NCBI GenBank assembly: GCA_041586955.1 | Contig: JBFGZE010000064.1 | Coordinates: forward strand, 1 to 19,966 | Direction: 5' to 3' | Length of the DNA: 19,966 bases | From: Bacteriovoracaceae bacterium | GTDB taxonomy: Bacteria; Bdellovibrionota; Bacteriovoracia; Bacteriovoracales; Bacteriovoracaceae | Part shown: positions 719 to 17,610 of the stretch, piece after piece | How positions within the stretch are numbered: position 1 is the first letter of the stretch | Layout of the letters: the number at the start of each line of letters is the position of its first letter | The notes under the pieces: model-generated | Databases searched by the model: none | Told to the model about the DNA's origin: nothing | Seen by the model: only the letters and a program-made list of their open reading frames with translations | Made by a program: the position numbers and the translations under genes

Positions 719-1078
719 TTAGGAGAATTCCCAGCTTCTACTTTTTTTCTTATAGACAAGATTAAAATTGGATAAATTATCAAGCACGAGATCTTCTTTA
801 TCTCCCAATATCTTACGATCAGAATATTTAATAATAGCCGGACTCAATAAACTATCGACATGAACAGAAAACTGGACGAAGTCACCATCCTTAGGTTTAG
901 GAGGGAGGATGAAAACATCTTCATTTTTGGGCACGCAAATATCCCCAGAAGAGAGCTGAGTTCTACTATCAGTTCCCTCCTCATCTAATAACTTATTTCC
1001 ATTGATAAAACCGAGTACTGGAGTAAGAAGTACAGTACGCAAAAAATTCCAAATTAAGTTTCTTCTTCTAATGGCCAT
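719..1078 (-). CDS. Small protein with a twin-arginine-like leader and a phage long-tail-fibre (T4 gp34 N-terminal repeat-like) module
   Basis: N-terminus IRRRNLI followed by a hydrophobic stretch. C-terminal pattern ILPPKPKDGDFVQF...KILGDKEDLVLD...FNLVY...W resembles the LP..P..GD.V...I.G...DL.L...LVY...W tail-fibre repeat. Recognised by eye. Confidence 0.5.
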   Translation of the reverse strand: MAIRRRNLIWNFLRTVLLTPVLGFINGNKLLDEEGTDSRTQLSSGDICVPKNEDVFILPPKPKDGDFVQFSVHVDSLLSPAIIKYSDRKILGDKEDLVLDNLSNFNLVYKKKSRSWEFS

Positions 1079-1121: not shown

Positions 1122-2369
1122 GTGAAGAAATTTTTATGGCGTGGCTCCCGCTCGCAGGATGGCTTTAGTTTAGTTGAAGTTTTAGTGACTGCCGGTATTT
1201 TAGGGGGTTTGAGTGTCATTTATATGCGGCTTGCGGAAACTCAAATTAAGACCTCTAAAACCGTCGAGTCCCGCTATGAAACGACGGCCATACTTAATGA
1301 TATTCGAACTGTCTTATCGTCACCAGGATCCTGCCTGGAGTCGTTCAGCAATAATCCAGTCAGTCCCGGGGTCCCCTTTGCTTATAACCAAGGCGTTCTG
1401 CCCGACCCAGTCGGTCTAAGGCTAGTTCGAGGTGCCGCAACCACAGACCGCTTTATGGCAAACTCCGATGAAAACTTGGCCCAGGCCTATGGCAATGGCG
1501 CTATTAAAATTTTATCCTATTCACTAGATGATACCGACCCAACTGTTGGTATTGCCCCCGGAGAGACGATAGGAACCACCCATTTAATTGTTGAGTTTTA
1601 TCGTGGAAAAGGAGTTATGGGACAAGAAAGTATCACACGAAAAATAGTCCTGAACGTCGAGCGAGTCTCCCCTGGAGATAATAGTATTCGAGATTGTAAT
1701 ATTGCACCGGTTGGCCTAGGGCCCATGTCGTGTTCTTTATTACAAGGGGTTTACTCAGCAGGCCCACCTTCAAGGTGTGATCTCGGTCTTTACCGTGACC
1801 CTTCGGCCAATGATCAAAGAGACTATGCTATTTCAGAAAACTATATTCGAGATATGCTACTTCTTGACGACGATATGGGAACGTTAACGATTGGAAATAG
1901 TTCTGTAGCAGATGTCGTCACCATTAATGCGGCCACGACTATTTCCGGAAATACAGTCATTTCAGATGGCTTTACTTTTTCTATGGTTTCAGACAAAAAG
2001 CTAAAGGATGATATCCAAGAGCTAGGTCCAGTGCTTCAGAGTATCTCTAATTTACATGGCGTGCAATTCTCATGGAAATCAAATGGTCGGCCGGATATCG
2101 GCCTCATCGCCCAAGAGGTTCAAAAAGAGTTTCCACTACTAGTGCTTAAAGACAAAAAAACGGGAACTCTCTCAGTGAAATACGCACAATTAATTGCCGT
2201 AACGATTCAAGCGATCAAAGAGCTCAACGAAAAGAACCGTTTATTAGAAAAAGAAAACCAAGAGCTTATGATCAAGGGACGCGTTCAAGAAGAAAAAATT
2301 GATTTAATGGCAAAAGGCCTATGTCAAATCAATCCCACAATGGAAATCTGTAAATATCACAACGATTAA
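1122..2369 (+). CDS. Type IV pilin-like (prepilin N-methylation motif) protein fused to a C-terminal peptidase S74 intramolecular chaperone (tail-fibre ICA) domain
   Basis: GTG start with GAGGAA RBS. G|FSLVEVLVTAGILGG prepilin motif at 1161. S74 motifs SDKKLKDDI (Ser290 at 1989), LHGVQFSWK, IGLIAQEVQKEFPLLV and LSVKYAQLIAVTIQAIKEL, then a coiled coil. Confidence 0.88.
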   Translation: MKKFLWRGSRSQDGFSLVEVLVTAGILGGLSVIYMRLAETQIKTSKTVESRYETTAILNDIRTVLSSPGSCLESFSNNPVSPGVPFAYNQGVLPDPVGLRLVRGAATTDRFMANSDENLAQAYGNGAIKILSYSLDDTDPTVGIAPGETIGTTHLIVEFYRGKGVMGQESITRKIVLNVERVSPGDNSIRDCNIAPVGLGPMSCSLLQGVYSAGPPSRCDLGLYRDPSANDQRDYAISENYIRDMLLLDDDMGTLTIGNSSVADVVTINAATTISGNTVISDGFTFSMVSDKKLKDDIQELGPVLQSISNLHGVQFSWKSNGRPDIGLIAQEVQKEFPLLVLKDKKTGTLSVKYAQLIAVTIQAIKELNEKNRLLEKENQELMIKGRVQEEKIDLMAKGLCQINPTMEICKYHND

Positions 2370-2383: not shown

Positions 2384-2983
2384 ATGGGTCAACTATCAGA
2401 CAAATTAACTCAAATAGTGTTTGGAACAGGTGCGGGTCAACCATCCATCGCTCGCTGCCAAATCAATACTAACACCGGTGCCACGGTTGGTGCTGTCCCA
2501 AAAAATACAGCAAGTGCGACATCTCTCATTGTCAGTGGAGAATTTAAGGCCAATAAAGTATGGAATGCGGTATGGAATGATATCGCGGATTTTCAATTAT
2601 TAAACGATGAATTGAAATATGGCCTATGTTATTTTGACACTAAAGATGGCGCACGCATTTGTACCTCTCGTTGCCAAATGTCAGTCATTGGCATTGCCTC
2701 TGACTCTTTAGGATTTGGTGTAGGCTCAGGTGCTCACCCTGGCCAAGAAGTTCCGATAGCTGTTGCTGGTTGGGTTTTGGCCCATGTTGATCAAGAGTAT
2801 GAATGTGGCACTGTTTTAACAAACGATAAAAATGGATTCTTAACAAAGATGACAAAAGAGGAAAAACTTGAATATCCAGAGCGCATCGTGGCCCTCTATA
2901 AAAGGAAAGAAATGGACGAGTTCTGGGGGCCAGCGGGTCAACAAATTACTGTCAATGGTCGCCACTGGGTTAAAGTAAAATAA
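2384..2983 (+). CDS. Phage tail-fibre/appendage-like protein with a peptidase G2-like autoproteolytic chaperone domain
   Basis: GAGGAG RBS, 14 bp downstream of the pilin gene. KVWNAVWNDIADF resembles the NAVWNDYAE motif of phage fibre chaperones. Followed by VIGIASDSLGF, VPIAVAGWV, GTVLT, EYPERIV and ITVNGRHWVKVK. Confidence 0.62.
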   Translation: MGQLSDKLTQIVFGTGAGQPSIARCQINTNTGATVGAVPKNTASATSLIVSGEFKANKVWNAVWNDIADFQLLNDELKYGLCYFDTKDGARICTSRCQMSVIGIASDSLGFGVGSGAHPGQEVPIAVAGWVLAHVDQEYECGTVLTNDKNGFLTKMTKEEKLEYPERIVALYKRKEMDEFWGPAGQQITVNGRHWVKVK

Positions 2984-3523: not shown

Positions 3524-4600
3524 ATGACAATCGAAAAAAACTTTCTCCATAAAATGACGAATACTAATATTGATAATATTGAAAGTATGGACTTTGTTTT
3601 AAACCTTGATATTTTAGATGGATGTGTCCACTTCTGTGACGGCTGCTTCGTCAGAAAGAATAATGATATTAAAAATTGGGATACAGTCCTTGAAAAGGCC
3701 CTTACAATTGCTAAAGAATTAACGTCTAAGGGACTCCGCTTTAGGGAGTTAATATTAGGGCCAACCGACTTCTTTAGTGCTCATAATACTAAGGCGATTC
3801 TATTAGACCCACGCTTTCAGTCCCTGCTTACTCTCAACGAAAAAACACGTATCACCGCCTCTTGTGTTTTTGATTCCTTGGACAAAAACCATTTCCTAGA
3901 AATTTTTAATATTCTTGATGATACTCGCTATTTTAGAAAAGAGATGATTTTAGAGTTTCTCGTGCCTTTACACGCGGAAAAGATGCTTAACAAAGAGGCG
4001 CAATACATACAGGATAATAAATGGGCATTAGAGCATTTTAAAAATAAATCCCCTAAAGTGATCGACTGGTCTTATGTTATTAATATTAATAATAATGAAT
4101 TATTAAAAAATAATTATATGACAGTTGTTGATACCATTAAAAGAGAGTTTAATACTATTCTTGAATTTAACCCGGGGTTTTTTAGAACCAATAATAATCA
4201 ATTAATTGATAAAAACCTTACTTATTGGAAAGGCTTTCTGCAGAAAATCCTTGAAGGAAATCACTACTCAAACCTCTGTTTAACCAGCCTCGATAAGCAC
4301 CATAATACCGCCAATACCATCTGCCTTAACCTTATTGGGGATAAGGTCTATTTTAGTCCCTTTATCTATGAACAAATTATTGAGGCAAGCGATCTCTTTG
4401 CGGTAACCCCTCTCGATGGCGAAACAATTTTAAATAAGCATCTCGATCTCCAAAAGCAAGGCTTCCGCTATGCTGAAAAAACCAAGGAATGTATTGATTG
4501 CGAATTTCTCACTCCCTGTGTTGGCCGCAATGTCTTAAATTATATGGAAGTCAAAAACAAAGAGGATTGTTTATTTCCGGATAAATTTAAAGATCTTTAA
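3524..4600 (+). CDS. Atypical radical SAM protein (GPTDFF-type paralog 1) with a C-terminal 4-Cys auxiliary motif
   Basis: ATG at 3524 with AAGGGG RBS, preferred over the track's TTG at 3470. CVHFCDGC (CxxxCxxC); LILGPTDFF where GGE is expected; C-terminal CIDCEFLTPC-x16-C. Confidence 0.85.
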   Translation: MTIEKNFLHKMTNTNIDNIESMDFVLNLDILDGCVHFCDGCFVRKNNDIKNWDTVLEKALTIAKELTSKGLRFRELILGPTDFFSAHNTKAILLDPRFQSLLTLNEKTRITASCVFDSLDKNHFLEIFNILDDTRYFRKEMILEFLVPLHAEKMLNKEAQYIQDNKWALEHFKNKSPKVIDWSYVININNNELLKNNYMTVVDTIKREFNTILEFNPGFFRTNNNQLIDKNLTYWKGFLQKILEGNHYSNLCLTSLDKHHNTANTICLNLIGDKVYFSPFIYEQIIEASDLFAVTPLDGETILNKHLDLQKQGFRYAEKTKECIDCEFLTPCVGRNVLNYMEVKNKEDCLFPDKFKDL

Positions 4601-5679
4601 CTCTTATCAAGAAATTTATAGAATGACTTAAGGGGACAGGTATCCATGTCCCTTTTTCTATTTCGCCAATCCCATTGGGTAAAGCAACGAAATCCACATT
4701 TTTGAAAATACTCACAGGAGAGACATCCCATCTCATCCAAAAAATTTTGCATCATCCCGGCATTATCTTTTAAATTTAATTTTGTATTAAAATCTTTTTG
4801 CTCGTAGCGATGCCAACGACAATTAGAGGTTCTATTATCGGGAAAAATTGTGATCTTATTTAATGATAAGCAATGCATTTTATTAAAGTTATTATTAATT
4901 AAATCGGCCACGGGCTGAATTCGAGGGTACTTTTCTGCAATAAATTTATACCAATTAAAAAACTCTGAGTCTGTGGGGACGGATTCATCTGAACCAGCAT
5001 CTGGTATAAAATCATCAAAATAGATATTAAAATTATTATATAAAAATTTAAAATAGAGATCTTTATCTTTAATAAATTCCTTAATCGATTCGCTTGTTCC
5101 GACAAGATTAATTGAGCAAATATACTCTGGCCCAAACCACGAGATATTATCGGTATAAAGCCTAGACATAGGCCTTCCATGAAAATCATACGACGCTATA
5201 AGATAACTATCAATTTCGGCCTTCCTAAGGTCGAGAAGGAGTTTTTTAACTCTCTCCCTTTTCTTAAAGAGGAAGTTACTGACGATAACGACCTTCATCT
5301 TAAAATTGAACTCATCAAAATAAGGTTTTAGCTCTTTTAGAAGATCAGTATAGTCTTGGCATAAGCGATCCATCCAGCGATCTTGTAATAGTTCACCTCC
5401 GACCAAATTAATTTGAACTAAATCCACTCGTCCTCGTTGTTTTTTTAAAAAGTCAACAATCAGAGGAATCTTAGAAAACATTTCTTCTCGTGTCAGTCCT
5501 GTTTGAGATTTCTTATCGTGAAAGCAAAAGTCACAGGTAATATTACAATTTTCAAAAAGAGTGAGTTCAATTTCGGCAATATCAGGCCTTTTACTTTCAA
5601 GGATCGATTTAGTGGCGCTCATGGGTAGCGCTGGAGACTTAAAGCTATCGGAGTTTTCTTTTTCTTTAAGCGTAATCAT
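4597..5679 (-). CDS. Radical SAM protein with a SPASM/twitch-like C-terminal Cys cluster
   Basis: CNITCDFC; LVGGE; C-terminal HC...NC...CLSCEYFQKCGFRC...TC. Confidence 0.9.
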   Translation of the reverse strand: MITLKEKENSDSFKSPALPMSATKSILESKRPDIAEIELTLFENCNITCDFCFHDKKSQTGLTREEMFSKIPLIVDFLKKQRGRVDLVQINLVGGELLQDRWMDRLCQDYTDLLKELKPYFDEFNFKMKVVIVSNFLFKKRERVKKLLLDLRKAEIDSYLIASYDFHGRPMSRLYTDNISWFGPEYICSINLVGTSESIKEFIKDKDLYFKFLYNNFNIYFDDFIPDAGSDESVPTDSEFFNWYKFIAEKYPRIQPVADLINNNFNKMHCLSLNKITIFPDNRTSNCRWHRYEQKDFNTKLNLKDNAGMMQNFLDEMGCLSCEYFQKCGFRCFTQWDWRNRKRDMDTCPLKSFYKFLDKS

Positions 5680-5710
5680 CGCAGACCTAGGGAAAAAATT
5701 AGAATATTTT

Positions 5711-5751
5711 TATAGTTCTTTAACTATAGATTTCCCCGTTATTACTGTCAA
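5711..5751 (-). promoter_or_regulatory. Sigma70-type promoter for the 4597-5679 gene, overlapped by a short inverted repeat
   Basis: Minus strand TTGACA (5751-5746), 17-nt spacer, TATAGT (5728-5723). Inverted repeat TATAGTT-cttt-AACTATA at 5711-5728. Confidence 0.6.
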
Positions 5752-5760
5752 ATTATAAGC

Positions 5761-6807
5761 CTACATCAGTTCTAATAGATTGAGGACTTTAGAAGGGAAC
5801 GGGCATTCCTTAATTTCCTTAAGCTCCATAATTGAAAGAACATTCTTCCCGACACAGGAATTGAGATTGCTGCAATCAGAGCAATCATGAGTTTTAAGAC
5901 TGTAAAGGTATTGCGACCTCATGAGAGTATCCACTTTATCAATAATCGAGCGAGGGCCGATAGTTTTGATTCGTAAACCTTCATCGCATTCATTGAGAGG
6001 CCTATAGATGAAAGGAGAAATGTAAAGGTGTTCATCAGAATAATTGAGGTAGAGGACTTGAAAAAAGTGATAATCCTTCTCTCCTATTGGCAATAGAAGC
6101 CCTTTATAATTTTCATTTGATATATAATCATTTAGGAAATCCTTGAGGTTTTGTAATCTTACTATCAAACCTCCTTGGGCACCTGTCATTTGTTCAGGTA
6201 AAAACTGAATGACAAACTCGACGTCTTGCCCTAAGGAAGTTTCAAGAGATGACACGATTTTATCACTAAATTCTTCAAATAATTTACAATCATTATAGTC
6301 CACATTAAAGGAAAAGATAGGCCTTCGCTGATGATTATTAAAATGTTTCGAAAGCGAAGAGAGTGTTCCTAGAAAGTCTTCATCCGCTTGTAAAAGCCTC
6401 GCTAGAGGGCACGTTAAGACAATATTAATATCCAGAGTTTGAGGATATAGGAGCGGATTATTGAGCAGTGAAAAAGGGCCTAATAGAGCTTTTACATCAC
6501 CATTATCTACTTCATCAAGTTTTATGGGTATGGTGATCCTCATATAGGGATGTTCTTTCAAAAAACCTTGAAAATGAGGACTGCTCATAACCCCATCGAC
6601 CTGAAAACTTCTGGAACCTAAAACAAGCCCCTTAAACCGATAATTCTGATCAACCAGTTGATTGATGGCGTTTAAAGTTAAAAGAAAAGGATGCTTAGCG
6701 CTCAATTTTTGGCGCAACAAACCTGCAATATTAAGTACAATATTTATTTTATGAGAAATGCTATCATCCAAATGCTGATTGAGTTTTTCAATGCTACTTA
6801 TGGCCAT
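5761..6807 (-). CDS. Degenerate radical SAM-fold paralog lacking CxxxCxxC (GPTDFF-type paralog 2)
   Basis: Aligns with the 3524 and 11446 proteins (RFKGLVLGSRSF vs RFRELILGPTDFF; LYISPFIY vs VYFSPFIY; CSDCSNLNSCVGKNV-..C). No N-terminal Cys triad. Intact 348-aa ORF. Confidence 0.75.
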   Translation of the reverse strand: MAISSIEKLNQHLDDSISHKINIVLNIAGLLRQKLSAKHPFLLTLNAINQLVDQNYRFKGLVLGSRSFQVDGVMSSPHFQGFLKEHPYMRITIPIKLDEVDNGDVKALLGPFSLLNNPLLYPQTLDINIVLTCPLARLLQADEDFLGTLSSLSKHFNNHQRRPIFSFNVDYNDCKLFEEFSDKIVSSLETSLGQDVEFVIQFLPEQMTGAQGGLIVRLQNLKDFLNDYISNENYKGLLLPIGEKDYHFFQVLYLNYSDEHLYISPFIYRPLNECDEGLRIKTIGPRSIIDKVDTLMRSQYLYSLKTHDCSDCSNLNSCVGKNVLSIMELKEIKECPFPSKVLNLLELM

Positions 6808-6880
6808 GCCAAATTATGGCATATTTTTAAGTTTGACCCAATAATTATTCCCACTGCAAAGGTAATGATCCTACCATTAA

Positions 6881-6950
6881 GTTAGGTTTACACCAACAAG
6901 GTCAGCGTGTAACATTTAACTATAATCCATCGAGGTACATCAGGAGGAGA
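6881..6950 (+). promoter_or_regulatory. Putative promoter/operator and RBS of the candidate substrate gene
   Basis: Perfect TATAAT at 6921-6926 with no consensus -35. Dyad TTACAC (6888-6893)-N13-GTGTAA (6907-6912), flanked by GTTA/TAAC. AGGAGG RBS at 6942-6947. Confidence 0.45.
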
Positions 6951-6955
6951 TAAAC

Positions 6956-7492
6956 GTGACAACACATGTTGATCGAGCGGCTAAAATTCAAAAATTCATT
7001 GATGATGTTATCACCCCAGCAACCAATGCATTTGAAGTTGGTAGGGAGGCCATTCCTGGAGGTCAAGGCCCCATCCCCAATATTCTCTCTCATTGTGATG
7101 AGTTTAGAATCACTCCTAATGATTTTAATACAATCGCCCCTCGTGGCGGGCAACTCACGGCCTCCGCCTTGGCCGATATTTTTCAATATTACGCCTATAT
7201 TCTAACTTCCTGTCGGCGGGCCACAATCAGTCGGTACGGAGGAGGAGTTATCTCCACCGATAAAGTCACAACCCTAAACTCTAACTATAGAATGAACTTT
7301 GCCGCCTTTAAGTCGGCGGTTACCGCAAGTCCCAACCCCTTAGATAATCTTCAACCTGGCAACCCCGCTGCTTCAGCTGCGCTAGATGCCTTAATCGCAA
7401 GACTTGCTTCAATTGTTACAACCCAGCGTAATATGGCCCCCGTCAACGTTACGATATGCCATGGCTGCCATAGCTCACGCGGAAGACGTTAA
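6956..7492 (+). CDS. Candidate radical SAM substrate/precursor protein with a C-terminal CHGCHSSRGRR tail
   Basis: GTG start with a strong AGGAGG RBS. Ala/Gly/Thr-rich 178-aa protein, unlike the neighbouring enzymes in composition, with no signal peptide. Cys/His/Ser-rich basic C-terminus; central position in the rSAM cluster. The ORF is secure but the function is inferred. Confidence 0.65.
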   Translation: MTTHVDRAAKIQKFIDDVITPATNAFEVGREAIPGGQGPIPNILSHCDEFRITPNDFNTIAPRGGQLTASALADIFQYYAYILTSCRRATISRYGGGVISTDKVTTLNSNYRMNFAAFKSAVTASPNPLDNLQPGNPAASAALDALIARLASIVTTQRNMAPVNVTICHGCHSSRGRR

Positions 7493-7520
7493 ATAAATTT
7501 TAAAAAGAGGTAGATTTTAA

Positions 7521-8288
7521 ATGAATAATGACCAAGAAATTAAATATATTGATGTTCCTCTTAAAGTAGAGGAGTTAAAAGAGTTTATCGAAAATAAGAC
7601 AAAATATTCTTATTTTATTAATTACCAAACCTCTGAACTCAAAGATTTGGTACTTCTCAATTATATTTCCAACCTCGAGTTACCAGCAGAAATCATCATG
7701 GACAATTGCTCCTATGATGAAAAAGCAGGTCTGCTTAAGGCCTATATGGATACACGGAATATTGTTAAAATAGACTCTCTTGCTCTTAACGTCGCCAAGA
7801 TCCTTTTAGATTATCGAGGCCTTGACACTACAGAAATATTTAACCGGCCCTATTTCGATCAAAATGAAAGTAAGCAATTTATCAATGATCATAAAGAGCT
7901 TATCCAGAAATGGGAACATTTTCTCGAGAGCACTATTATTTTCGCCCAATCTTGTGTCAAAGAACTTAACGAGCTTCTTAAAATTAAAGAAGATATTGAA
8001 GTTATCAATGACAGTCGTTATGTTGGATCGAATATAGTCAATCTATTTTCTATCCCCTCTTTTTCCGAATTATTCTTTCTCGTCCCCTTAAGAACGGAAC
8101 TCAAATATTTCAGGCCACAATTTGAAGAGAGAATGTTTAAGGGCAGAAGTTTTTACGATTATTATTTTTGTCAGCAAAATGATGTTTTAAATATGTTTTT
8201 AGCGCATATTGAAAATGATATTACTCGTAATGATATGAACGCTGCTTATAAAGAAGCACAGGCCATTTTAATGGAAAGCAATCCATAA
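7521..8288 (+). CDS. Hypothetical protein, rSAM-cluster accessory factor
   Basis: AGAGGT RBS; 255 aa, soluble; 28 bp downstream of the candidate substrate. No catalytic motif recognised. Confidence 0.75.
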   Translation: MNNDQEIKYIDVPLKVEELKEFIENKTKYSYFINYQTSELKDLVLLNYISNLELPAEIIMDNCSYDEKAGLLKAYMDTRNIVKIDSLALNVAKILLDYRGLDTTEIFNRPYFDQNESKQFINDHKELIQKWEHFLESTIIFAQSCVKELNELLKIKEDIEVINDSRYVGSNIVNLFSIPSFSELFFLVPLRTELKYFRPQFEERMFKGRSFYDYYFCQQNDVLNMFLAHIENDITRNDMNAAYKEAQAILMESNP

Positions 8289-8293
8289 TTTAA

Positions 8294-9376
8294 TTATTCT
8301 TGCCCCATAAACCCTGCTAGAACCTTTTTATAAAGAGTAGCATTTTCATCGGCATTGGCCTTTAATTCATGCATCAAGCTCTTTGGCGCCGCACATACAT
8401 CACCTTGCCAACCAAGTTGGTGGCAATCACCATTACAAATATCATAGACCGGGCATTCATTACATATAGGGTTTCTCAAGACCTCGTCATTGATATTACA
8501 AAGACGACCAGTACTTCCCATTAAGGCGGAAATATCATCATTAATGGTGCCAAAAGTATTAGAGACAGCGCCGTTAGGGCAACCACCAATGGTACCATCA
8601 GCATTAAGCGTCAGGACTTTCTGCTCACAACTACGCGAACGACATCCTGAATGAGTATTATAGACCAGCGAAGATAGGATTGAGTCCAGAAACAGATTAT
8701 CAATAGACTCCCAGGTTTTATGCTCAACGGTTTGTATCCACATAAGATGGAGCCAACGATCAATATCAATATTTGAGGGCATAATATTATTTTCTAAATT
8801 TAAAAGGGCATTTCCATCAGCAGTCACCCTCTCAAAGTTAATATATTTCACCCCCAAAGACGCCAGATCTTTAATTATATCTATCGGCTGTAGTTCTTTA
8901 ATAACATTTCCGGTCAAACTCACCATAACAGTAATCTGATGACCTCGGTCGGCCAATTCTTTGACATTGGAGCGCCATAATTTTTCTTGTGCCGAATTGG
9001 TCCAGCGAATACCATAATCCCAGGAAGTTCCCCACGACTTCTGGCAAATTTTATCTAAAACAGCTACTTTATCCTCTGTTAATTTATAAGTCAGGTTAGT
9101 TTGAATAGACCACCAAATATTGGGCCATAAGTCTTTAATTCCATTCCAGGCCTCAAACATCATTTCTGTAGGACATAAGAAGGGCTCTCCCCCGTGAAAG
9201 GAGATATGGCCATTATCATAATGAGGATGATAGCGCTTTAAACGCTTAAAAAAATCGATTGTTTTTGCGACATCAAAAAACCCCTTTTTACCGTTACTAC
9301 CATTGGTGAAACAATGAGAGCAATTGAGCTGGCAGGTGTCAGTTGTTTTAAGATAAACGATTAAGTCATTTGCCAA
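8294..9376 (-). CDS. Radical SAM/SPASM domain protein (peptide/protein maturase-like)
   Basis: TTG start with GAGGA RBS. CQLNCSHC; SFHGGEP; IQTN; SPASM-like CRSRSC...DGTIGGCP...CNECPVYDICNGDC...C. Confidence 0.92.
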   Translation of the reverse strand: MANDLIVYLKTTDTCQLNCSHCFTNGSNGKKGFFDVAKTIDFFKRLKRYHPHYDNGHISFHGGEPFLCPTEMMFEAWNGIKDLWPNIWWSIQTNLTYKLTEDKVAVLDKICQKSWGTSWDYGIRWTNSAQEKLWRSNVKELADRGHQITVMVSLTGNVIKELQPIDIIKDLASLGVKYINFERVTADGNALLNLENNIMPSNIDIDRWLHLMWIQTVEHKTWESIDNLFLDSILSSLVYNTHSGCRSRSCEQKVLTLNADGTIGGCPNGAVSNTFGTINDDISALMGSTGRLCNINDEVLRNPICNECPVYDICNGDCHQLGWQGDVCAAPKSLMHELKANADENATLYKKVLAGFMGQE

Positions 9377-9481
9377 AGTCTTTTTCCTCGTTGATCATTA
9401 GTATAATTCTTTATGCTAGTAAAAATGGTAACATTCTAACTTTCAAAAGAACAATAGTTTTGGCAGAGAAATGGAATTCAA

Positions 9482-10537
9482 TTGGAACTAATCGTTAAAC
9501 CGACAGAGATATGTAATTTCGCTTGCACTTTTTGTAGCTCACCTCACTTATCAAAAGAAAAAGGGAAAATACTCGATATTGATAAAATATTTCAATTCTT
9601 AAAGCGCTTTCCCCAAACCAATACTCTTATTATCAACGGTGGCGATCCACTAATGGTTAGACCGAACTATTATTGGAGAATATTAGAACATATTGAAGCG
9701 AATAATCTAATCACCAAAATAAGTTTTACCACCAATCTTTGGGACTTCTATTTGCACCCTGAGAAATGGACAGCATTATTTCAGCATGAGAGAGTTGGGG
9801 TCACGACCTCCTTTAATTATGGTGAGACCAGAAGAGTCAGCAAATCAAAAAATTTTACCGAAGACTTATTTTGGAAAGTATCAGACAAATTTTCAAATTT
9901 AATTGGGTATCGGCCCGATTTTATCAGTGTTGTCAATGATCAAAATGAATCTACCGCTCTCGACAATGTTCTTCTGGCCAAGAAGATGAATGTCGAATGT
10001 AAATTAAACTACGCCATGGCCTCTGGCAGAGAATCTAGACCCTATCAATTATCAAAAATATATCAAATATACCTAGAGATTATTAAAAATAAACTAACCC
10101 CCTGGGAATTTAATACCAAAGAATTAATTAAGGGGATAAATAAACGGACAACAATTTGCCCCCGCAACCGTACTTGCGACTCAGGAATACGCTGTATCCA
10201 ACCTTCTGGTGATTATTATAGCTGTGGCGCCTTTGGCGATGATCACGAACATAGTATTGATTTTGATCAAGAGATGAATGATACTAATATCTCTACCCCA
10301 TTATCTGATAATTTTGAATTATCATCATTAAAAATGGAATGCTTTGGATGTCCCATGTTCGAGATATGTAATGGATGCCATAAAACTATTAGTGACTTAA
10401 AACGATTCAATATGGTCGAGTCTCATTGCCAACTAATGAAGCAATTGGAAAAAGAAATATGTCTTCTCGGTAACGATTTTAACCTCTTCAAAGTAAAAGA
10501 GATGGACAATGTTGGAAAACATAACTCTTTCAATTAA
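9482..10537 (+). CDS. Radical SAM/SPASM domain protein (peptide/protein maturase-like)
   Basis: TTG start. LIVKPTEICNFACTFC; INGGDP; FTTN; SPASM-like CPRNRTC...GDYYSC...CFGCPMFEICNGC...HC. Confidence 0.92.
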   Translation: MELIVKPTEICNFACTFCSSPHLSKEKGKILDIDKIFQFLKRFPQTNTLIINGGDPLMVRPNYYWRILEHIEANNLITKISFTTNLWDFYLHPEKWTALFQHERVGVTTSFNYGETRRVSKSKNFTEDLFWKVSDKFSNLIGYRPDFISVVNDQNESTALDNVLLAKKMNVECKLNYAMASGRESRPYQLSKIYQIYLEIIKNKLTPWEFNTKELIKGINKRTTICPRNRTCDSGIRCIQPSGDYYSCGAFGDDHEHSIDFDQEMNDTNISTPLSDNFELSSLKMECFGCPMFEICNGCHKTISDLKRFNMVESHCQLMKQLEKEICLLGNDFNLFKVKEMDNVGKHNSFN

Positions 10538-11462
10538 CCCTATTTATCAATGCAATTTCCGTTGCGACTTCTGCTATTTAAGGCCAGAACAATTATCGGA
10601 TCCCAAAACCCTATCTCTCAATAAACTTGAGGCCAGACTCAAAGAAATCTCATCCCACCGTCGAATTTCTTTTATCGACCTCTATGGTGGTGAGATCGCC
10701 CTATTAAAAAATGATTACCTCAACGAGATGCATGCCATCGTACGGAATTTCTACCGCGGGCCCATTAATGTCATCACCAACTTAAGTATGAATATTCCCT
10801 ATTTTGATAAAGAAGATGTGACCCTTTCCGTCAGCTGGGATTACGATGGTCGGGCCCAATATGACAAAGTCTTGAGTCATATCATGGGAATGAGTAAAGA
10901 TGTTCATATTCTCATGCTCGCTTCCCCTCAAATGCTAAAATGGGATGTTCAAAAAGTCACAGACGTGGTCTCACTTTTTAATCTGGCCAAAAATATTAAA
11001 AGTGTCGAAATCAAACCTTATTCAGCGAATCAATCGAACCAATATAATATTACCTATAATGCTTTCGAAGAATTTATTAAATTATGGCTCAGCTTAAAAG
11101 AAACCTTCCAATTCCAATTTATCAACGAGCAATTAATCCTTGATTCATTAAAAGGCGTTAAAAACTCTTGGTCAGATGACCATCTCTATATAACTCCCAA
11201 TGGGAAATTGGCCGTTTTAGATTTTGATACAAATTATAATGAGCAATTTATTGAACTTAATAATTTTGAGCAATATACCCAGTGGCATAAAAAAGAAAAA
11301 ATTAAAATTACCCAAAACAAAGAATGCTCATCTTGTTCCTATATGGGCCATTGCCTTAGTGAACATTTAAAAAATCATTCAAATCATAAAAACTCATGTG
11401 ATGGTTTCAAAGGTCTATTGGATTGGTATAAGGAGGAAGATCATTATGGCACTAGTGAGTGA
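10509..11462 (+). CDS. Radical SAM protein with a C-terminal 4-Cys auxiliary motif
   Basis: CNFRCDFC; LYGGE; VITN; C-terminal CSSCSYMGHCLSEH...SC. Overlaps the upstream gene by 29 bp. Confidence 0.9.
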   Translation: MLENITLSINPIYQCNFRCDFCYLRPEQLSDPKTLSLNKLEARLKEISSHRRISFIDLYGGEIALLKNDYLNEMHAIVRNFYRGPINVITNLSMNIPYFDKEDVTLSVSWDYDGRAQYDKVLSHIMGMSKDVHILMLASPQMLKWDVQKVTDVVSLFNLAKNIKSVEIKPYSANQSNQYNITYNAFEEFIKLWLSLKETFQFQFINEQLILDSLKGVKNSWSDDHLYITPNGKLAVLDFDTNYNEQFIELNNFEQYTQWHKKEKIKITQNKECSSCSYMGHCLSEHLKNHSNHKNSCDGFKGLLDWYKEEDHYGTSE

Positions 11463-12549
11463 TAACTTTCAGGCGATGGCAATCAGTGATAAAATGAATA
11501 TCACGATGGATCAGGCGTCTACCTTCAATATTCGCTTCAATATAGAGGTTCTCAAGGGTTGTGAGTTTCATTGCCCAGGTTGCTATGTGAATCGGGATAA
11601 TGCCTTTGACGAAAATGATCTCGAAATTCTACTACAGGCTTCCGAACAATTCAGCACTAATGGATTCCACTTCGAAGAAATTATTATCGGCCCAACTGAT
11701 TTTTTCGCCGCCTATAATACGATTGACCTCATTACCAATCCCAAATTTGCCCAATTAATTCAACCCAAAAGAGTCATGACGATCCTTTCAACTCTCCTTA
11801 GTCACAAAAATGAAATCCTTAAACGTATAGGTCTTGTCAATCAATATCTAGGCAAGGATTTTGAAGTAGAAGTTCTTATTCCTTTTGATGTCATGAAAAT
11901 TCTTTCTAAAGATCCACAATACATTCACCAATTAAAGGAAAAAATTGAATTACTACAATTCTTTGATGCGGATGTTGAATATGCCCTACAAATGAATATT
12001 CAAGATACCTCACAACTTGAACATTTTGACCTTTTCGAGGTGGCCCAATATATAAAAAATGAGTTCAGCTCCATTACCGAGTTTAATCCCTCATTTCTGC
12101 GTACCGGCAATGACCAATTGATTATCAAAACCATGAGTGCATGGAACCAAATGCTCAATAAAAACTTCTGTCATAAAATGTCTAAGACCATGGATAATAT
12201 TTTATTTACCATGGGAGATCCCATCCATGCAGGACTAAATGAGGTCACTTATAATTTTAAAAAAGGTATTTTTTATGAATGCCCTTTTATTTATGAAAAT
12301 GTCTTTGACAAAGGATCGCGCTTTAAAATTACACCTAATGGAGAAAATGGTCGTTATCTCTTAGATGACTTTATTAACCATCGCCATCAGGTTGATCGCC
12401 AGCAATTGCAATATCTTGAGCAAACAGATGAATGCTCGACTTGCCCTCATGTTATATCCTGCGTCGGCAAACAAGTAATTCATTATATGATGGATAAAAA
12501 AATAACTCATTGTCTCTTGGCCAAAGATGTCATGGATCTCTATGCTTAA
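11446..12549 (+). CDS. Atypical radical SAM protein (GPTDFF-type paralog 3)
   Basis: ATG at 11446 with AGGAGG RBS, preferred over the track's 11398. CEFHCPGC; IIIGPTDFF; EFNPSFLRT; C-terminal CSTCPHVISC-x16-C. Confidence 0.87.
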   Translation: MALVSDNFQAMAISDKMNITMDQASTFNIRFNIEVLKGCEFHCPGCYVNRDNAFDENDLEILLQASEQFSTNGFHFEEIIIGPTDFFAAYNTIDLITNPKFAQLIQPKRVMTILSTLLSHKNEILKRIGLVNQYLGKDFEVEVLIPFDVMKILSKDPQYIHQLKEKIELLQFFDADVEYALQMNIQDTSQLEHFDLFEVAQYIKNEFSSITEFNPSFLRTGNDQLIIKTMSAWNQMLNKNFCHKMSKTMDNILFTMGDPIHAGLNEVTYNFKKGIFYECPFIYENVFDKGSRFKITPNGENGRYLLDDFINHRHQVDRQQLQYLEQTDECSTCPHVISCVGKQVIHYMMDKKITHCLLAKDVMDLYA

Positions 12550-13012
12550 AGATCATAAGTTCAGGCAACACCTCTTTCTCACCTTCAGTGGCCCTGAAAA
12601 ACTAAAAAAGGGCAAAACCTATATTTATCCCAATCTTTCAAAGGAAGAATTAATTGGCCATATTACCGCCTATTTTAGGGTGGAGCAAAAAGATCTTATC
12701 TATCCCGCCAAATCCTATTGTGTCGCCATCATTTATGCCCTTTTATTAGAGGAATATTTTGGTGAGGACTTTTATCATACCCTCAATGATCCTGAACTAT
12801 TTCAAAATACAGATCAATACTTCCTGCCCTATTCACAGAATAAAGAGATTTACGATCAGGTCTTGCTGCAACTCAAAGAAGAGGGAACTTTTCCCCAATT
12901 GAACTTAGAACTCGACCAAGTTCAAACCACGGTCAATTGTTTTAAAGATGAGTTTTTTGTTAATTTTACAGATTTAAAGAAATTGGTCCAGGATTTGGCC
13001 TTTCAAGCATAA
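12542..13012 (+). CDS. Hypothetical protein, rSAM-cluster accessory factor
   Basis: Likely ATG at 12542 overlapping the upstream stop (ATGCTTAA); alternative start at 12527. Distinctive YPAKSYCVAIIYA...FGEDFY..LNDPEL...DQYFLPY segment. Last gene of the rSAM operon. Confidence 0.75.
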   Translation: MLKDHKFRQHLFLTFSGPEKLKKGKTYIYPNLSKEELIGHITAYFRVEQKDLIYPAKSYCVAIIYALLLEEYFGEDFYHTLNDPELFQNTDQYFLPYSQNKEIYDQVLLQLKEEGTFPQLNLELDQVQTTVNCFKDEFFVNFTDLKKLVQDLAFQA

Positions 13013-13054: not shown

Positions 13055-13669
13055 ATGAAATACCTTTTTTCTCTCTTATTTTTCATTTTTATCCAGGCAG
13101 AGGAGCCTGCCCTTCACTCTTTCCCTCCTCCCCATAAAGGCTGCCCTTTAAACGCCTGGTGTTCTGAACAAACCGGACAATTAATCACCAAATGGGAAAA
13201 TGAGCAGGAAAAAGGCATCAGTACCACTGTTCCATTATTAATATGGAGTCAAAAAGAGGGAGAGCTCAAGCAAACCGTCAGCTATAGCGGTATCTGTAAA
13301 AACCCACTCTCCATGGCCATTTATTTTGGCAAGAGTCTCCCAACCCAAACTCATTGGCAGACAAACACCATCAATATTTGGCATCAAAAGAAAATCACCA
13401 AAAGTTATCCTGCCCTTCGCCAGGAAATCCCCATAAAGGCCACGCCAGAGGGGCTTACCTATTTAATCCGCTTTAACGGCCATTATTCTATTTTTCATCT
13501 CAATAATAAGTCACAAGTTACGGTTCTTGAAAACCCTCCTAAAGTTATGGATCAAATGCGCGAAATCAATTGTCCCGCTCATATCAAAGATTCGGATAAG
13601 TCGAAAGTTCGGTGCTACTTTATAAATGGCGGTCCTCAGATTTTGGCGATGCGCTCTCCCTGCCTATGA
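13055..13669 (+). CDS. Secreted hypothetical protein
   Basis: Signal peptide MKYLFSLLFFIFIQA; six Cys; ATGA overlap with the next gene. Confidence 0.75.
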   Translation: MKYLFSLLFFIFIQAEEPALHSFPPPHKGCPLNAWCSEQTGQLITKWENEQEKGISTTVPLLIWSQKEGELKQTVSYSGICKNPLSMAIYFGKSLPTQTHWQTNTINIWHQKKITKSYPALRQEIPIKATPEGLTYLIRFNGHYSIFHLNNKSQVTVLENPPKVMDQMREINCPAHIKDSDKSKVRCYFINGGPQILAMRSPCL

Positions 13670-14532
13670 AAATCGTTTTTTGGAATGTTGAAAATTTATT
13701 TTTACCGCATTGTGATCCCGGTCCACTAAAGTCACAAAAAAATATTGAATCATTAGCGCAACAAATCCATTATATGGATCCCGATATTTTATTTCTTGCC
13801 GAGGTGGGGGGACTTTTAGCGCTAGAGACATTCAACCTTAATTTTTTACAAAATAAATACCGCATTCTCTTTACCCCGGGAAATAGTAATCGCAATATTC
13901 AATTGGCCTGCCTCATTAAGTCCGAATTTGAAAGCAAAAGCTCTCACTTAAGTTACGCCAAATCACTTTTAGGGCAAAGTCCCGATGGCCGTGATCTTTA
14001 TTTTGCTCGCGACTTAGGTCATCTTATCTTAAAGGATGAAGACCGAGAAAAACCACTGCACCTTTGGTGGGTTCATCTCAAAAGTCAATTAACAGTCGCC
14101 GCCGATGATCACCGAGGCATTATTCACCGTGAACACGAAATCAAGTTTATTTGCCAAAAAATAAATGAATATCAAGATGACCAGCATATACTGATGGGTG
14201 ATTTTAATGGCCTGGCCTTTCATGAATTTCCCGATCGCGAGTTCCGGCCATTGATGGAGCTTCCTCTCTCCTGCCTTTATGAGAAATTGGATGTCGAACC
14301 CCAGTTTTCCTGGCTTGGTTTTGACAGGGCCAAAAAGTTTACACCCCTAATGCTTGATTATGCCTTTTTATCCGAGGATCTTTTTGATTTTCTCGATAAA
14401 AAAGAATCAGGACTCTTTCACCCTCTGAATGAAGATGGAAAACCCCTATCATGGCCTAAGCACCCACGTGATCGTGTTAATTTTCCAGCCGATCATTTAC
14501 CACTGGTTATAAAGCTCAAAGCTAGTCGTTGA
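13666..14532 (+). CDS. Endonuclease/exonuclease/phosphatase (EEP) family protein
   Basis: Start at ATG 13666 (MKIVFWNVENLF). Motifs PDILFLAEV, VHLKS, ILMGDFN, LDYAF and ADHLPL. Confidence 0.92.
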   Translation: MKIVFWNVENLFLPHCDPGPLKSQKNIESLAQQIHYMDPDILFLAEVGGLLALETFNLNFLQNKYRILFTPGNSNRNIQLACLIKSEFESKSSHLSYAKSLLGQSPDGRDLYFARDLGHLILKDEDREKPLHLWWVHLKSQLTVAADDHRGIIHREHEIKFICQKINEYQDDQHILMGDFNGLAFHEFPDREFRPLMELPLSCLYEKLDVEPQFSWLGFDRAKKFTPLMLDYAFLSEDLFDFLDKKESGLFHPLNEDGKPLSWPKHPRDRVNFPADHLPLVIKLKASR

Positions 14533-14557
14533 TTTAACCCGCCTTTTTTTATAAGCT
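14529..14557 (+). promoter_or_regulatory. Sigma70-type promoter, probably leaderless
   Basis: TTGATT (14529-14534), 17 nt, TAAGCT (14552-14557). ATG at 14565 with no Shine-Dalgarno. Confidence 0.45.
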
Positions 14558-14564
14558 TATTCCT

Positions 14565-14927
14565 ATGAAAATTTTAATCGCTATTTTATTTATGCAGGGC
14601 CTCGTTTATGCCGGCCCTTACCAATTCAACCTGCAAATTACTGAACCTGACTTTACTCTTAAAAACTACCCTTTAGACGATAAAGAGTTTCGCCCCTTTA
14701 TGCAAAAAACCAGTTGGCGTTGTTTTTTTGGCGAGACAAAAGAGAAAGGGAAAGATCAGTTTTATAAAAATGTCCGCTGCAATTATAGTGTCAAAAAAGT
14801 TGGGGAATTCACGACAAAAATAGTCTGTGGAAAAAATATGCCCTTCAATGAGCTCCATCTCGATTTATTAGATGAGAAGAAAAACCTGACCTTTAAGATC
14901 TACCTCTTTTGTAAACCTAAGGCCTAG
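14565..14927 (+). CDS. Secreted hypothetical protein
   Basis: Signal peptide MKILIAILFMQGLVYA; four Cys; beta-rich pattern. Confidence 0.75.
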   Translation: MKILIAILFMQGLVYAGPYQFNLQITEPDFTLKNYPLDDKEFRPFMQKTSWRCFFGETKEKGKDQFYKNVRCNYSVKKVGEFTTKIVCGKNMPFNELHLDLLDEKKNLTFKIYLFCKPKA

Positions 14928-14944
14928 GCAAGATCTTCCGATAG
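14918..14944 (+). promoter_or_regulatory. Putative sigma28 (FliA)-type promoter
   Basis: TAAG (14918-14921)-N15-TCCGATAG (14937-14944), compared with the consensus TAAA-N15-GCCGATAA. Followed by CAGGAGG RBS. Confidence 0.45.
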
Positions 14945-14964
14945 GTTCTCTACAGGAGGACCTC

Positions 14965-15798: not shown

Positions 15799-15801
15799 AT
15801 A
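15784..15801. repeat. 18-bp perfect palindrome spanning the overlapping 3' ends of two convergent genes
   Basis: TATTTAATGCATTAAATA is its own reverse complement. Confidence 0.9.
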
Positions 15802-16899: not shown

Positions 16900-16909
16900 C
16901 GAGGGTCCT

Positions 16910-17587: not shown

Positions 17588-17610
17588 AGCTCCTCCTGAT
17601 TGATCTTGTC

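Follow-up and report, generated by a model that had tools for sequence, protein, structure and literature searches.

The locus analyzed here raises the question of what seven radical SAM-family genes, grouped with accessory genes around one small protein, would act on. The window, a 19,966-nucleotide stretch from a Bacteriovoracaceae bacterium (contig JBFGZE010000064.1), had been described from its sequence as carrying a ten-gene cluster at 3524-13012, with six CxxxCxxC proteins, one motif-less paralog, and a 178-aa protein with a Cys/His tail as the candidate substrate. All ten ORFs are present at these positions (Table 1), and the gene at 11446 starts as in a database gene call of 367 aa (P0004). 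The ATG at 3524 is internal to a longer TTG frame opening at 3470. Chance is excluded for the gene set because the whole set is conserved in other genomes. We consider it fairly probable that the cluster constitutes a phage-derived pathway which post-translationally matures the C-terminal tail of a dedicated folded protein. The unit probably reaches to the left, to about 719-2983, including tail-fibre-like genes.

Table 1. Genes of the cluster and its probable or possible neighbors in the window. Family A comprises proteins matching phrog_1802, and family B proteins matching phrog_31457.
Feature	Position	Strand	Description
g1	3524..4600	+	Radical SAM-like enzyme, family B, 358 aa, CX3CX2C
g2	4597..5679	-	Radical SAM enzyme, family A, 360 aa
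g3	5761..6807	-	Family B paralog without radical SAM Cys triad
g4	6956..7492	+	178 aa, candidate substrate/carrier; tail ICHG-CHSS-RGRR
g5	7521..8288	+	255-aa accessory protein
g6	8294..9376	-	Radical SAM/SPASM enzyme, family A, anSME-like
g7	9482..10537	+	Radical SAM/SPASM enzyme, family A
g8	10509..11462	+	Radical SAM enzyme, family A, 317 aa
g9	11446..12549	+	Radical SAM-like enzyme, family B, 367 aa
g10	12527..13012	+	161-aa accessory protein
Probably associated: pilin-leader/tail-fibre-like protein	1122..2369	+	Peptidase_S74 chaperone domain
Probably associated: 199-aa protein	2384..2983	+	Resembles phage Peptidase_G2 intramolecular-chaperone domain
Possibly associated: 119-aa protein	719..1078	-	

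The CX3CX2C triad was found in six of the seven radical SAM-family proteins (g1, CVHFCDGC; g2, CNITCDFC; g6, CQLNCSHC; g9, CEFHCPGC; also g7 and g8) and is absent from g3, in line with the preliminary description; a C-terminal CX2CX5C...C motif occurs in all seven, g3 included, and g6 contains 14 cysteines. As judged by BLASTP, g3 is a true paralog of g1 (E 7e-27) and g9 (E 2e-9), which are themselves related (E 1e-52). The GPTD stretch, invariant in the g9 family, has likewise disappeared from g3, and the g3 orthologs in two related loci (L001 and L003) also lack the triad and form one clade with it (support 97); g3 is probably a non-catalytic pseudo-enzyme. The Pfam Radical_SAM model (PF04055, gathering cut-off 29.5 bits) was passed only by g7 (42.2 bits) and g8 (31.1 bits), with g6 (28.6), g9 (14.8), and g2 (13.8 bits) below the cut-off and no match in g1 or g3. 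With the SPASM model TIGR04085 (cut-off 27 bits), g6 (26.7 bits) and g7 (24.7 bits) fell just under the cut-off, g8 scored 16.5 bits, and the remaining four proteins gave no match.

The presence of seven radical SAM-family genes is supported by profile and structure comparisons. A profile of g6 and g7 orthologs aligns full-length, through the SPASM region, to anSMEcpe (4k36; E 9.4e-18). The g9 family, the one modelled (AlphaFold, pLDDT 87.6), is predicted to adopt a partial TIM-barrel radical SAM fold, its best PDB matches in Foldseek being EpeE, anSME, ChlB, CteB, SkfB, and SuiB (E about 2e-5, TM 0.4-0.54). The same fold is attributed to g6 and g7 because of their sequence match to anSME, and to g1 and g3 because they are paralogous to g9. 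The SPASM type, earlier ascribed to these enzymes in general, is supported on sequence grounds for g6 and g7 only, the other five carrying a shorter four-Cys C-terminal motif. In the proposed HMM check against Pfam and NCBIfam, every cluster enzyme stayed below the cut-offs of the curated cofactor and RiPP families.

Co-occurrence, the other check suggested at the outset, was assessed in 12 related genome loci (L001-L012), mostly Bacteriovoracia/Bacteriovoracaceae MAGs. Further cluster genes are present in 10 of them, and a protein with the same tail is encoded in eight. All ten gene families are found in L003, nine in each of L004-L007, and eight in both L009 and L012; in L001 and L008 the contig stops within the cluster, and L002 and L011, from one MAG, hold a solitary family B gene amid housekeeping genes. 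Indirectly, the lists of g4 and g9 homologs have three contig sizes in common (7871, 15180, and 15855). The g1 protein (phrog_31457, E 1e-13) has orthologs of 63-67% identity in L001 and L003-L008 and of 48% in L009, and 37 homologs were found for g9. Among family A members, g2 (phrog_1802, E 7.7e-27) has an invariant GGE motif and no PDB sequence match at E<=0.01, and g8 matches phrog_1802 with E 2e-34, its orthologs in L004-L008 having a variant three-Cys motif, CX6CX3C.

The candidate substrate, g4, does end in a Cys/His tail, ICHGCHSSRGRR, which is invariant in a 12-sequence alignment (A3). It belongs to a large family without a name (485 representatives at 50% identity). Neither g4 nor the accessory proteins g5 and g10 are covered by any Pfam or NCBIfam model, and no description of a g4-type tail protein/radical SAM system was found in the published literature. 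The canonical tail of the family comprises three C-H-x-S repeats, then R-G-R-R and the C-terminus; among the 150 best family members, the CHxxR[GSA]RR terminus occurs in 130 and exactly three CHxx repeats also in 130. The window protein fits the family profile and keeps CHSSRGRR, with two Cys-His pairs and a first unit of three residues, and by this comparison its tail is a shortened variant of the canonical one. Given this shortened tail and the probably inactive g3, the window copy could be partly decayed. Conservation across the family is far higher in the tail than in the body (3.70 vs 1.37 bits per column). AlphaFold predicts a confident 160-residue fold with a flexible tail (pLDDT 81.9; disorder in the last residues only), which has no PDB match and is common to uncharacterised phage proteins, including Atu_ph07 gp170. 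The g4 gene has an AGGAGG-type ribosome-binding site and a GC content of 0.479 vs 0.364 for the cluster.

These features bear on two alternatives to a matured tail. HydE/HydG and NifB provide a precedent for radical SAM enzymes building non-protein ligands of metal centres, and g4 might in the same way be a scaffold or carrier whose tail ligates a metal or metal-sulfur centre, with the cluster enzymes making the non-protein ligands of that centre; Cys and His residues invariant at fixed spacing, the many radical SAM genes around one small protein, the additional C-terminal Cys motifs in every enzyme, and the lack of a protease or exporter among the cluster genes would all be compatible with this, and a Cys/His tail could as readily be a metal-binding scaffold as a substrate. 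We regard such metallocofactor assembly as rather improbable, since the cluster shows no conserved recipient apo-enzyme or scaffold NTPase, the best matches of both the family A profile and the family B fold are enzymes that modify peptides or proteins, and the invariant Ser and the R-G-R-R stretch have no evident metal-ligating role. Peptide-derived cofactors such as PQQ and mycofactocin offer a different comparison, in which the last 12-16 residues of g4 would be a core cut from a leader domain to yield a free bioactive peptide or cofactor. The position of the presumed modified region at the very C-terminus, the resemblance of the enzymes to radical SAM/SPASM maturases, and a weak match of one tail to the SCIFF peptide model (15 bits vs a cut-off of 27) point in this direction. 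However, inspection of the cluster genes in the window, in L004 and L012 (with their extra cluster genes), and in the three phage loci described below revealed no protease, transporter, exporter, or immunity gene, the g4 body is a confidently predicted 160-residue fold, and the 'core' hardly varies between phages and bacteria and the 'leader' is variable, opposite to most RiPPs; a classical RiPP of this kind is decidedly improbable. The early preference for a modified protein over a secreted peptide is supported by gene content, predicted fold, and the conservation of tail over body.

The phage origin of the pathway is suggested by jumbo phages, in which PHROG families 1802, 31457, 20767, and 20737 are true orthologs of the window genes (RSF1/RSL2 group, Atu_ph07, Phosso, and pPa_SNUABM_DT01). 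Of 12 distinct phages matched, the loci of three were inspected (RSF1, Atu_ph07, and pPa_SNUABM_DT01), and all three contain the same module: the tail protein adjoins the g6 ortholog and is accompanied by g5, g2, g7, g8, and g10, the neighborhood order around the tail-bearing protein being the same as in the window. Four enzyme lineages are common to bacteria and phages, with mixed clades in the enzyme tree (FastTree, 73 rows) supported at 99 for g2 and g8 and 100 for g6 and g7; the lineage best conserved between the window and phages is g7, with 50-56% identity to its phage orthologs. The phage versions possess an additional cupin and 2OG-Fe(II) oxygenases and are set among baseplate/virion genes, whereas the window's lineage has no cupin and is located in a bacterial chromosome. 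The RSF1 RefSeq record assigns the tail protein no virion role and labels it simply hypothetical, and the phage papers, in the parts dealing with module genes that are cited here, name these by annotation alone, without function (PMC8066314, PMC11898562, PMC5468394). It is very improbable that the enzymes, with the phage cupin and 2OG oxygenases, modify nucleotides, DNA, or a metabolite, with a regulatory or bystander role for the tail protein. The module is phage-borne, RSF1 has dihydrofolate reductase (DHFR) genes interspersed in it, and weak viperin-type N-terminal matches occur; however, those matches are limited to the CX3CX2C region and far under the cut-off (28-31 bits vs 180), Atu_ph07, pPa_SNUABM_DT01, and the bacterial loci all lack DHFR genes, and the tail protein strictly adjoins g6 or g5.

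The g5 protein matches phrog_20767 over its full length (E 6.8e-57), has tblastn matches in 14 jumbo-phage records and no PDB match, and its gene lies directly after g4 in the window, L003, L009, and Atu_ph07, or with one gene between in L004-L007, RSF1, and pPa_SNUABM_DT01. Homologs of g10 (phrog_20737, E 7.3e-27) occur in L003-L007, L009, L012, and the three inspected phage loci. Scans with Pfam and NCBIfam models found no RiPP recognition element or PqqD-like domain in the cluster. In L009, peptidase genes lie just beyond the cluster edge.

In the predator genomes, two tail-fibre-like genes (1122-2983 in the window) accompany the cluster. The first matches PF13884 (E 5.5e-13), N_methyl, and PHROG tail-fibre families (down to E 1.6e-28), and its homolog adjoins the cluster in five of the 12 loci (L003 and L004-L007). 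The 199-aa protein has homologs of 58-69% identity in L003, L004, L006, L007, and L009, and adjoins the cluster in six of the 12 loci, on a side that differs per lineage; its ESM Atlas score to viral clusters is 0.95, one of these clusters having PF11962 in 37% of members. In L004-L007, homologs of the 119-aa protein (35-44% identity), which has no family match in Pfam or PHROG, are encoded between the cluster and the fibre gene. The preliminary description included neither this leftward extension nor the large tail family, the jumbo-phage module, or the analogy to the HXS system discussed below; new here are the tail family, the phage module, the four shared enzyme lineages, and the tail-fibre-like companions.

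In the proposed maturation pathway, the flexible, invariant C-terminal tail of g4 would be the substrate, and the folded N-terminal body would serve as carrier and recognition handle. Each of the four anciently diverged family A enzymes (g2, g6, g7, and g8) would perform a different radical step, and further separate steps would come from family B, with one to three enzymes (g1, g9), all directed at Cys, His, or Ser of the tail repeats; anSME-type Cys oxidation, thioether or carbon cross-links, and epimerisation would be likely candidates. Proteins g3, g5, and g10 would hold or present the substrate, and, with neither a protease nor an exporter among the cluster genes, the product would stay on the protein. 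The modified tail, basic and rich in His, would bind a polyanion or metal. By analogy with the HXS system, the tail protein may have nucleic acid as its target during phage or prey entry, and its gene neighborhood points to possible cooperation with adhesion structures of the tail-fibre or baseplate type. A bolder reading, which we put forward as a tentative possibility, is that these are a new class of radical SAM-matured protein 'warheads', in which five to seven enzymes turn the C-H-x-S repeats into a structure, polycyclic or resembling a cofactor, that binds metal or nucleic acid and is kept on its carrier, used by jumbo phages during infection and captured by Bacteriovoracia together with tail-fibre-like adhesins against prey. 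If true, phage uses could include genome entry, superinfection exclusion, or a role at the baseplate or fibre, and the tail chemistry would be without a described counterpart.

Among known systems, RiPP maturases (SCIFF/ranthipeptide ScfB and PapB, the CXXX-repeat type TIGR04115, and QhpD-QhpC) share with the cluster a SPASM-type enzyme adjoining a Cys-rich target, and the g4-family tail, like CXXX-repeat targets, has Cys at every fourth residue; thioether formation is a plausible step on the tail. They differ in that the g4-family target is a folded protein of 125-300 aa and is accompanied by five to seven enzymes, rather than one or two. Membership in the SCIFF, CXXX-repeat, or QhpD-type maturases was rejected, all scores being 15-38 bits vs cut-offs of 300-650 (TIGR03974, 19.2 vs 425; TIGR04115, 20.2 vs 350; PapB, 32 vs 340; QhpD, 31.8 vs 453).

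By the full-length alignment given above, anSME is the best match among solved relatives of g6 and g7; as in the proposed pathway, its substrate is a protein, folded or unfolded, and not a leader-core peptide. The last repeat of the tail, C-H-[GS]-S-R, presumably resembles the sulfatase C-x-[PA]-x-R motif; however, the third position is Pro or Ala in sulfatases and Gly, Ser, or Thr in the g4 family, and the window cluster contains several further enzymes. Identity with anSME was rejected (TIGR03942, 38.2 bits vs a cut-off of 349; no sulfatase domain in g4).

The closest known system is the HXS antiphage system (HxsA-D), in which HxsA, an effector with HxS repeats, is matured by two radical SAM enzymes, HxsB and HxsC, as far as the published account is drawn on here (PMC13128918; Nat Commun 2026). 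The cluster does not belong to HXS: the HxsC model TIGR03977 (cut-off 267.9) gave 36.6 bits with g7 and 18.2 bits with g8, the HxsA, HxsB (TIGR03978), and HxsD models gave no match, and Pfam found no peptidoglycan-binding domain in the cluster. PADLOC-DB 2.0 likewise gave no defence-system match, apart from pVip at 19-30 bits over the CX3CX2C region. The preliminary description named no characterised pathway with this architecture; HXS is a partly analogous one. HXS, as presented in the portions of its description used here, has two radical SAM enzymes, compared with six and a probably inactive paralog in the window cluster, and is 99.7% Pseudomonadota and chromosomal, whereas the present module occurs in jumbo phages and Bacteriovoracia (PMC13128918). 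The window-type repeats also differ in their invariant Cys start and in the site at the extreme C-terminus. According to the same portions, the radical SAM enzymes of HXS mature a protein effector rather than a small peptide, as proposed for the window cluster, and the description mentions no protease or exporter gene dedicated to the system (PMC13128918). Both have small accessory proteins (HxsD in HXS; g5 and g10 in the window cluster). The targets are also alike: that of HXS is described there as a short array of His-x-Ser-type repeats rich in basic residues, H-x-S is present within each C-H-x-S repeat of the g4 family, and the +8 Da modification of HxsA falls on SHRSS in its last repeat, to be set beside the last repeat of the window type, C-H-[GS]-S-R (PMC13128918).

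The ten-gene cluster at 3524-13012 is real, and it probably encodes a phage-linked radical SAM maturation system with a previously undescribed substrate family. As the preliminary description had it, ten genes (g1 to g10 in map order) were found there, tightly packed with spacings of -29 to 148 bases. The motif scan agreed with the six proteins that it had listed as carrying CX3CX2C (g1, g2, g6, g7, g8, and g9) and with the paralog that does not (g3), which matches g1 (E 7e-27) and g9 (E 2e-9), g1 and g9 matching each other at E 1e-52; the GPTD stretch, invariant across the g9 family, is likewise missing from g3. An auxiliary Cys motif, noted earlier for six of these proteins, takes the form CX2CX5C...C and ends all seven, and the 178-aa candidate substrate with the Cys/His tail, g4, ends ICHGCHSSRGRR. 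The g4 gene starts with GTG, preceded by a strong AGGAGG-type ribosome-binding site, and its GC content (0.479) exceeds that of every other gene in the cluster (0.33-0.40 in its neighbours).

Genes of the cluster and of its upstream neighbourhood
Feature	Position	Strand	Description
Small protein	719-1078		Homologs beside cluster in 4/12 loci
Fibre gene	1122-2369	+	Type IV pilin-like leader (N_methyl, G|FSLVE) and tail-fibre-like C-terminus, Peptidase_S74, S-D-x-x-x-K
2384 protein	2384-2983	+	199 aa, 58-69% identity across Bacteriovoracaceae loci
g1	3524-4600	+	Family B
g2	4597-5679	-	Family A
g3	5761-6807	-	Family B, paralog without CX3CX2C
g4	6956-7492	+	Candidate substrate
g5	7521-8288	+	
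g6	8294-9376	-	Family A
g7	9482-10537	+	Family A
g8	10509-11462	+	Family A
g9	11446-12549	+	Family B
g10	12527-13012	+	

Curated-model, fold, and profile tests divide the seven enzyme-like proteins into two deeply separated families, A (g2, g6, g7, and g8) and B (g1, g9, and g3); all members of the former match phrog_1802 and all members of the latter phrog_31457. Curated models matched weakly: the Pfam Radical_SAM cut-off was passed by g7 and g8 only, g6 being one bit short, and the SPASM model stayed below its cut-off of 27 for g6 (26.7) and g7 (24.7). No NCBIfam equivalog came near its cut-off with the cluster enzymes, and none of them reached that of a curated cofactor or RiPP family. Stronger tests confirmed the suggested radical SAM assignment: a profile of g6/g7 orthologs aligned over its full length with 4k36, an anaerobic sulfatase-maturating enzyme (anSME; E 9.4e-18), and for the g9 family AlphaFold gave a model (36 sequences; pLDDT 87.6, pTM 0.88) whose best structure matches were the radical SAM peptide maturases EpeE, anSME, ChlB, CteB, SkfB, TigE, and SuiB (E ~2e-5, TM 0.4-0.54). 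hhalign aligned the g9 family with the g6/g7 profile in the CX3CX2C region alone (5% probability), so that motif and fold are what link family B to radical SAM enzymes. PDB profile searches gave no match with the g5, g2, and g8 profiles and chance-level matches only, none of them radical SAM, with the g9 profile; ESM Atlas recognition of g5 was too low to use.

The tail of g4 defines a large, unnamed family whose C-terminus is almost invariant letter for letter and which is accompanied by five to seven radical SAM enzymes. We know of no characterised peptide- or protein-modifying cluster with anywhere near that number. When 1.84 billion representatives were searched with a profile built from 12 tail proteins, 485 of them (representatives at 50% identity) matched at E<=0.001, 75 of these at E<=1e-10. 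Among the best 150 of these 485, 130 end in CHxxR[GSA]RR and 125 in RGRR, and exactly three CHxx repeats precede the terminal R-x-R-R in 130; by the same pattern, the remaining 20 have no repeat (12), one (6), two (1), or four (1). Three or more repeats occur in 131 of the best 150, and the logo of these members reads [VI]-x-[VI]-x-[VI]-C-H-[SA]-S-C-H-S-[SN]-C-H-[GS]-S-R-G-R-R-end, in which the Cys, His, and three Arg positions are fixed by the selection pattern and Ser (87-91%) and Gly (85%) were free to vary. In these members, picked for three or more repeats, conservation averages 3.70 bits per column over the last 16 columns and 1.37 over the body. Shortened tail variants occur in g4 itself (CHG-CHSS-RGRR) and in its closest relative.

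AlphaFold predicts a confident alpha/beta body for g4 (pLDDT 81.9, pTM 0.80), with a disordered tail leaving the last strand. The fold matches uncharacterised phage proteins, among them Atu_ph07 gp170, and Foldseek found no match in the PDB (best E 1.1), nor did a PDB sequence search. Pfam and NCBIfam gave no match to g4 and at most sub-threshold, chance-level matches to 15 other family members. A CxxCH haem-binding motif was considered and rejected, as it fits the tail of the window only, canonical tails space their Cys as CX3C, and an export signal is absent. The tail proteins of four closely related loci (L004-L007) have a proline-rich spacer, CHGNFPPPCHGSRGRR.

The same module occurs in phages. 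In PHROGs, g5 corresponds over its full length to phrog_20767 (E 6.8e-57) and g10 to phrog_20737 (E 7.3e-27). tblastn with g4 found no match among phages, and the phage tail-protein homologs were reached through g5 and g7 and by reading ORF tails. By tblastn, 14 phage records contain g5 and 15 contain g7; the latter represent 12 distinct phages (genome size 223-490 kb), namely the Ralstonia/Burkholderia RSF1-RSL2-FLC group, Atu_ph07 (Agrobacterium), Phosso (Sinorhizobium), and pPa_SNUABM_DT01 (Pseudomonas). In all three phages inspected of the 12 (RSF1, Atu_ph07, and pPa_SNUABM_DT01), g6, the tail protein, g5, g2, g7, g8, and g10 form one block surrounded by baseplate, spike, or virion-protein genes, and the tails end CHSSCHSSCHGSRGRR, CHSSCHASCHNSRSRR, and CHTSCHTSCHSARGRR. 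Family B genes are also present in RSF1 and pPa_SNUABM_DT01, as are a cupin and 2OG-Fe(II) oxygenases; the cupin adjoining g6 is common to the phages, L004-L007, and L012 and is missing from the lineage of the window. The radical SAM block of RSF1 is interrupted in its middle (15593-16709) by two genes for dihydrofolate reductase and one for an HNH endonuclease.

In a FastTree phylogeny of 73 radical SAM-like proteins (seven from L005 were left out as near-copies of L004), g2, g6, g7, and g8 each form one clade with bacterial and phage members (support 99-100), and family B forms a separate clade with lineage-specific duplications. Since each of these four clades mixes bacteria and phages, divergence of the family A lineages preceded the spread of the module, which argues for four distinct conserved roles. 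According to the available text of the phage genome papers, these genes are named by annotation only (PMC8066314, PMC11898562, PMC5468394), and another paper notes, without explaining it, that one T4-like marine viral genome has 12 radical SAM genes (PMC5332604). The presence of the module in cultivable jumbo phages makes the role of the many radical SAM genes of large phages directly testable.

A word-indexed protein search with g4 alone returned two relatives only, and a genome scan with their alignment gave no locus. With g9, 37 homologs were found, one named as from a Bacteriovoracia MAG, and a second scan of species-representative genomes with the g9-homolog alignment yielded 12 loci (L001-L012), nine titled Bacteriovoracia, Bacteriovoracaceae, or Bacteriovorax, one "Proteobacteria bacterium", and two from a Rhodobacteraceae-labelled bin. 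BLASTP of every locus ORF against the proteins of the window bore out the expectation that homologs co-occur with each other and with the tail protein: further cluster genes are present in 10/12 loci, and reading of ORF tails revealed a protein ending ...CHxxRGRR in 8/12, as a tandem duplicate in L010 and L012. All ten families are present in L003, nine in L004-L007, where the place of g3 is taken by a second motif-bearing g9-like gene, and eight each in L009 and L012; in L001, L008, and L010 the contig ends inside the cluster. Three contig sizes shared by the g4- and g9-homolog lists (7871, 15180, and 15855) indirectly support this co-occurrence. A lone family B gene amid housekeeping genes in L002 and L011 (one MAG) counts against strict linkage. 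In L002 (2686-3798), this solitary g9 ortholog (53% identity) is flanked by a bicarbonate-transporter gene on one side and acetyl-CoA hydrolase genes on the other, with no other cluster gene within 13.8 kb.

Several loci show features of their own. The g8 orthologs of L004-L008 (e.g., L004 12658-13596, minus strand) have CX6CX3C instead of the radical SAM triad, and a 372-383-aa protein with no family match, absent from the window, follows the tail-protein gene in L004-L007 (~7400-8680) and in L008. L003 (12258-12791, 177 aa) and L001 (7577-8008, 143 aa) encode weakly similar in-cluster proteins (E 5e-5) with 12 Cys each; the window lacks a counterpart. In L004-L007 (~13600-19900), the cluster adjoins a block encoding a 946-aa multihaem cytochrome c, a cytochrome b, a Rieske protein, and a HEAT-repeat protein; L001 has this block too, which is probably synteny only. 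Giant ORFs in L010 (585-9164, 2859 aa) and L012 (3-6014, at least 2003 aa), which share 51% identity, stop one or two bases ahead of the tandem tail-protein gene pairs; these contigs, from a Rhodobacteraceae bin yet with very different coverage, look like phage contigs. A giant virion protein likewise lies upstream of the Atu_ph07 cluster.

The window itself is bacterial chromosome with an acquired island, as follows from the lower GC content of the cluster (0.364 vs 0.41 in the flanks) and from the bacterial flank genes (ABC-3 permease, BamB, and a TPR_21 protein). Scans for Rfam families, tRNA genes, and repeats in the window revealed neither an RNA gene nor attachment-type repeats that would mark the island ends, and promoter and terminator scans gave consensus matches only. 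Homologs of the 2384 protein lie beside the cluster in 6/12 loci and those of the fibre gene in 5/12. The position of these neighbours differs between the window (next to g1), L003 (near g2), L004-L007 (next to g6), and L009 (next to g10); the 2384 protein is always cluster-adjacent and changes side with lineage, in about four independent arrangements, because L004-L007 are close relatives. ESM Atlas places the 2384 protein near viral clusters (0.95), in one of which 37% of the members carry a Peptidase_G2 intramolecular-chaperone domain; its match to phi29 gp12 is weak (E 0.28), and tblastn against phages found none. The fibre gene joins a pilin leader to a tail-fibre-like protein, an unusual fusion. 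According to the available text of one study, Bdellovibrio recognises prey by S74-terminated fibres (PMC10769870). The location of the module in predators beside tail-fibre-like genes suggests that a functional module was exchanged between phages and bacterial predators.

We favour the reading that the radical SAM set post-translationally matures the g4 tail, with the folded body as a handle; the tail family, the phage module, and the co-occurrence support and extend the multi-enzyme modification proposed earlier. Oxidation of a Cys may be the task of the anSME-like g6, whose gene adjoins that of the substrate in phages; cross-linking or epimerisation of residues may fall to family B and the rest of family A, and presentation of the substrate to g3, g5, and g10. 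An unlikely reading of the same gene set is metallocofactor assembly on a scaffold. A protease or exporter was found neither in the cluster of the window nor in the additional cluster genes scanned from other loci, and none is annotated in the block of the three phage records; the product therefore probably remains attached to the protein, in line with the modified protein originally envisaged, and a released RiPP or peptide-derived cofactor is improbable. A nucleotide or small-molecule pathway is very improbable. The matured tail could act on nucleic acid at entry, in the manner of the HXS system described below, or serve a fibre or baseplate function.

PADLOC detected no defence system in the cluster, literature text searches found no paper describing it or printing the tail motif, and Ophion, a radical SAM defence against jumbo phages, has an unrelated architecture in the available text (bioRxiv 2025.09.30.679545). 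The nearest characterised system is HXS, an antiphage system in which, according to the available text, the radical SAM proteins HxsB and HxsC together with HxsD mature the protein HxsA, whose five His-x-Ser repeats are basic; in the last of them a +8 Da change was mapped on SHRSS, and matured HxsA binds DNA and blocks phage DNA entry (PMC13128918). Membership of the cluster in HXS fails at the level of sequence models, since the HxsC model reaches 36.6 bits against a cut-off of 267.9, and the HxsA, HxsB, and HxsD models and the peptidoglycan-binding domain have no match among the cluster proteins in NCBIfam and Pfam. The likeness lies in the tail, whose C-H-x-S repeats include H-x-S and are followed by R-G-R-R. 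HXS, reported in 2026, is the only experimental precedent for a radical SAM-matured effector with His-x-Ser repeats; from a second system, richer than HXS, new kinds of radical chemistry on Cys, His, and Ser could be learned.
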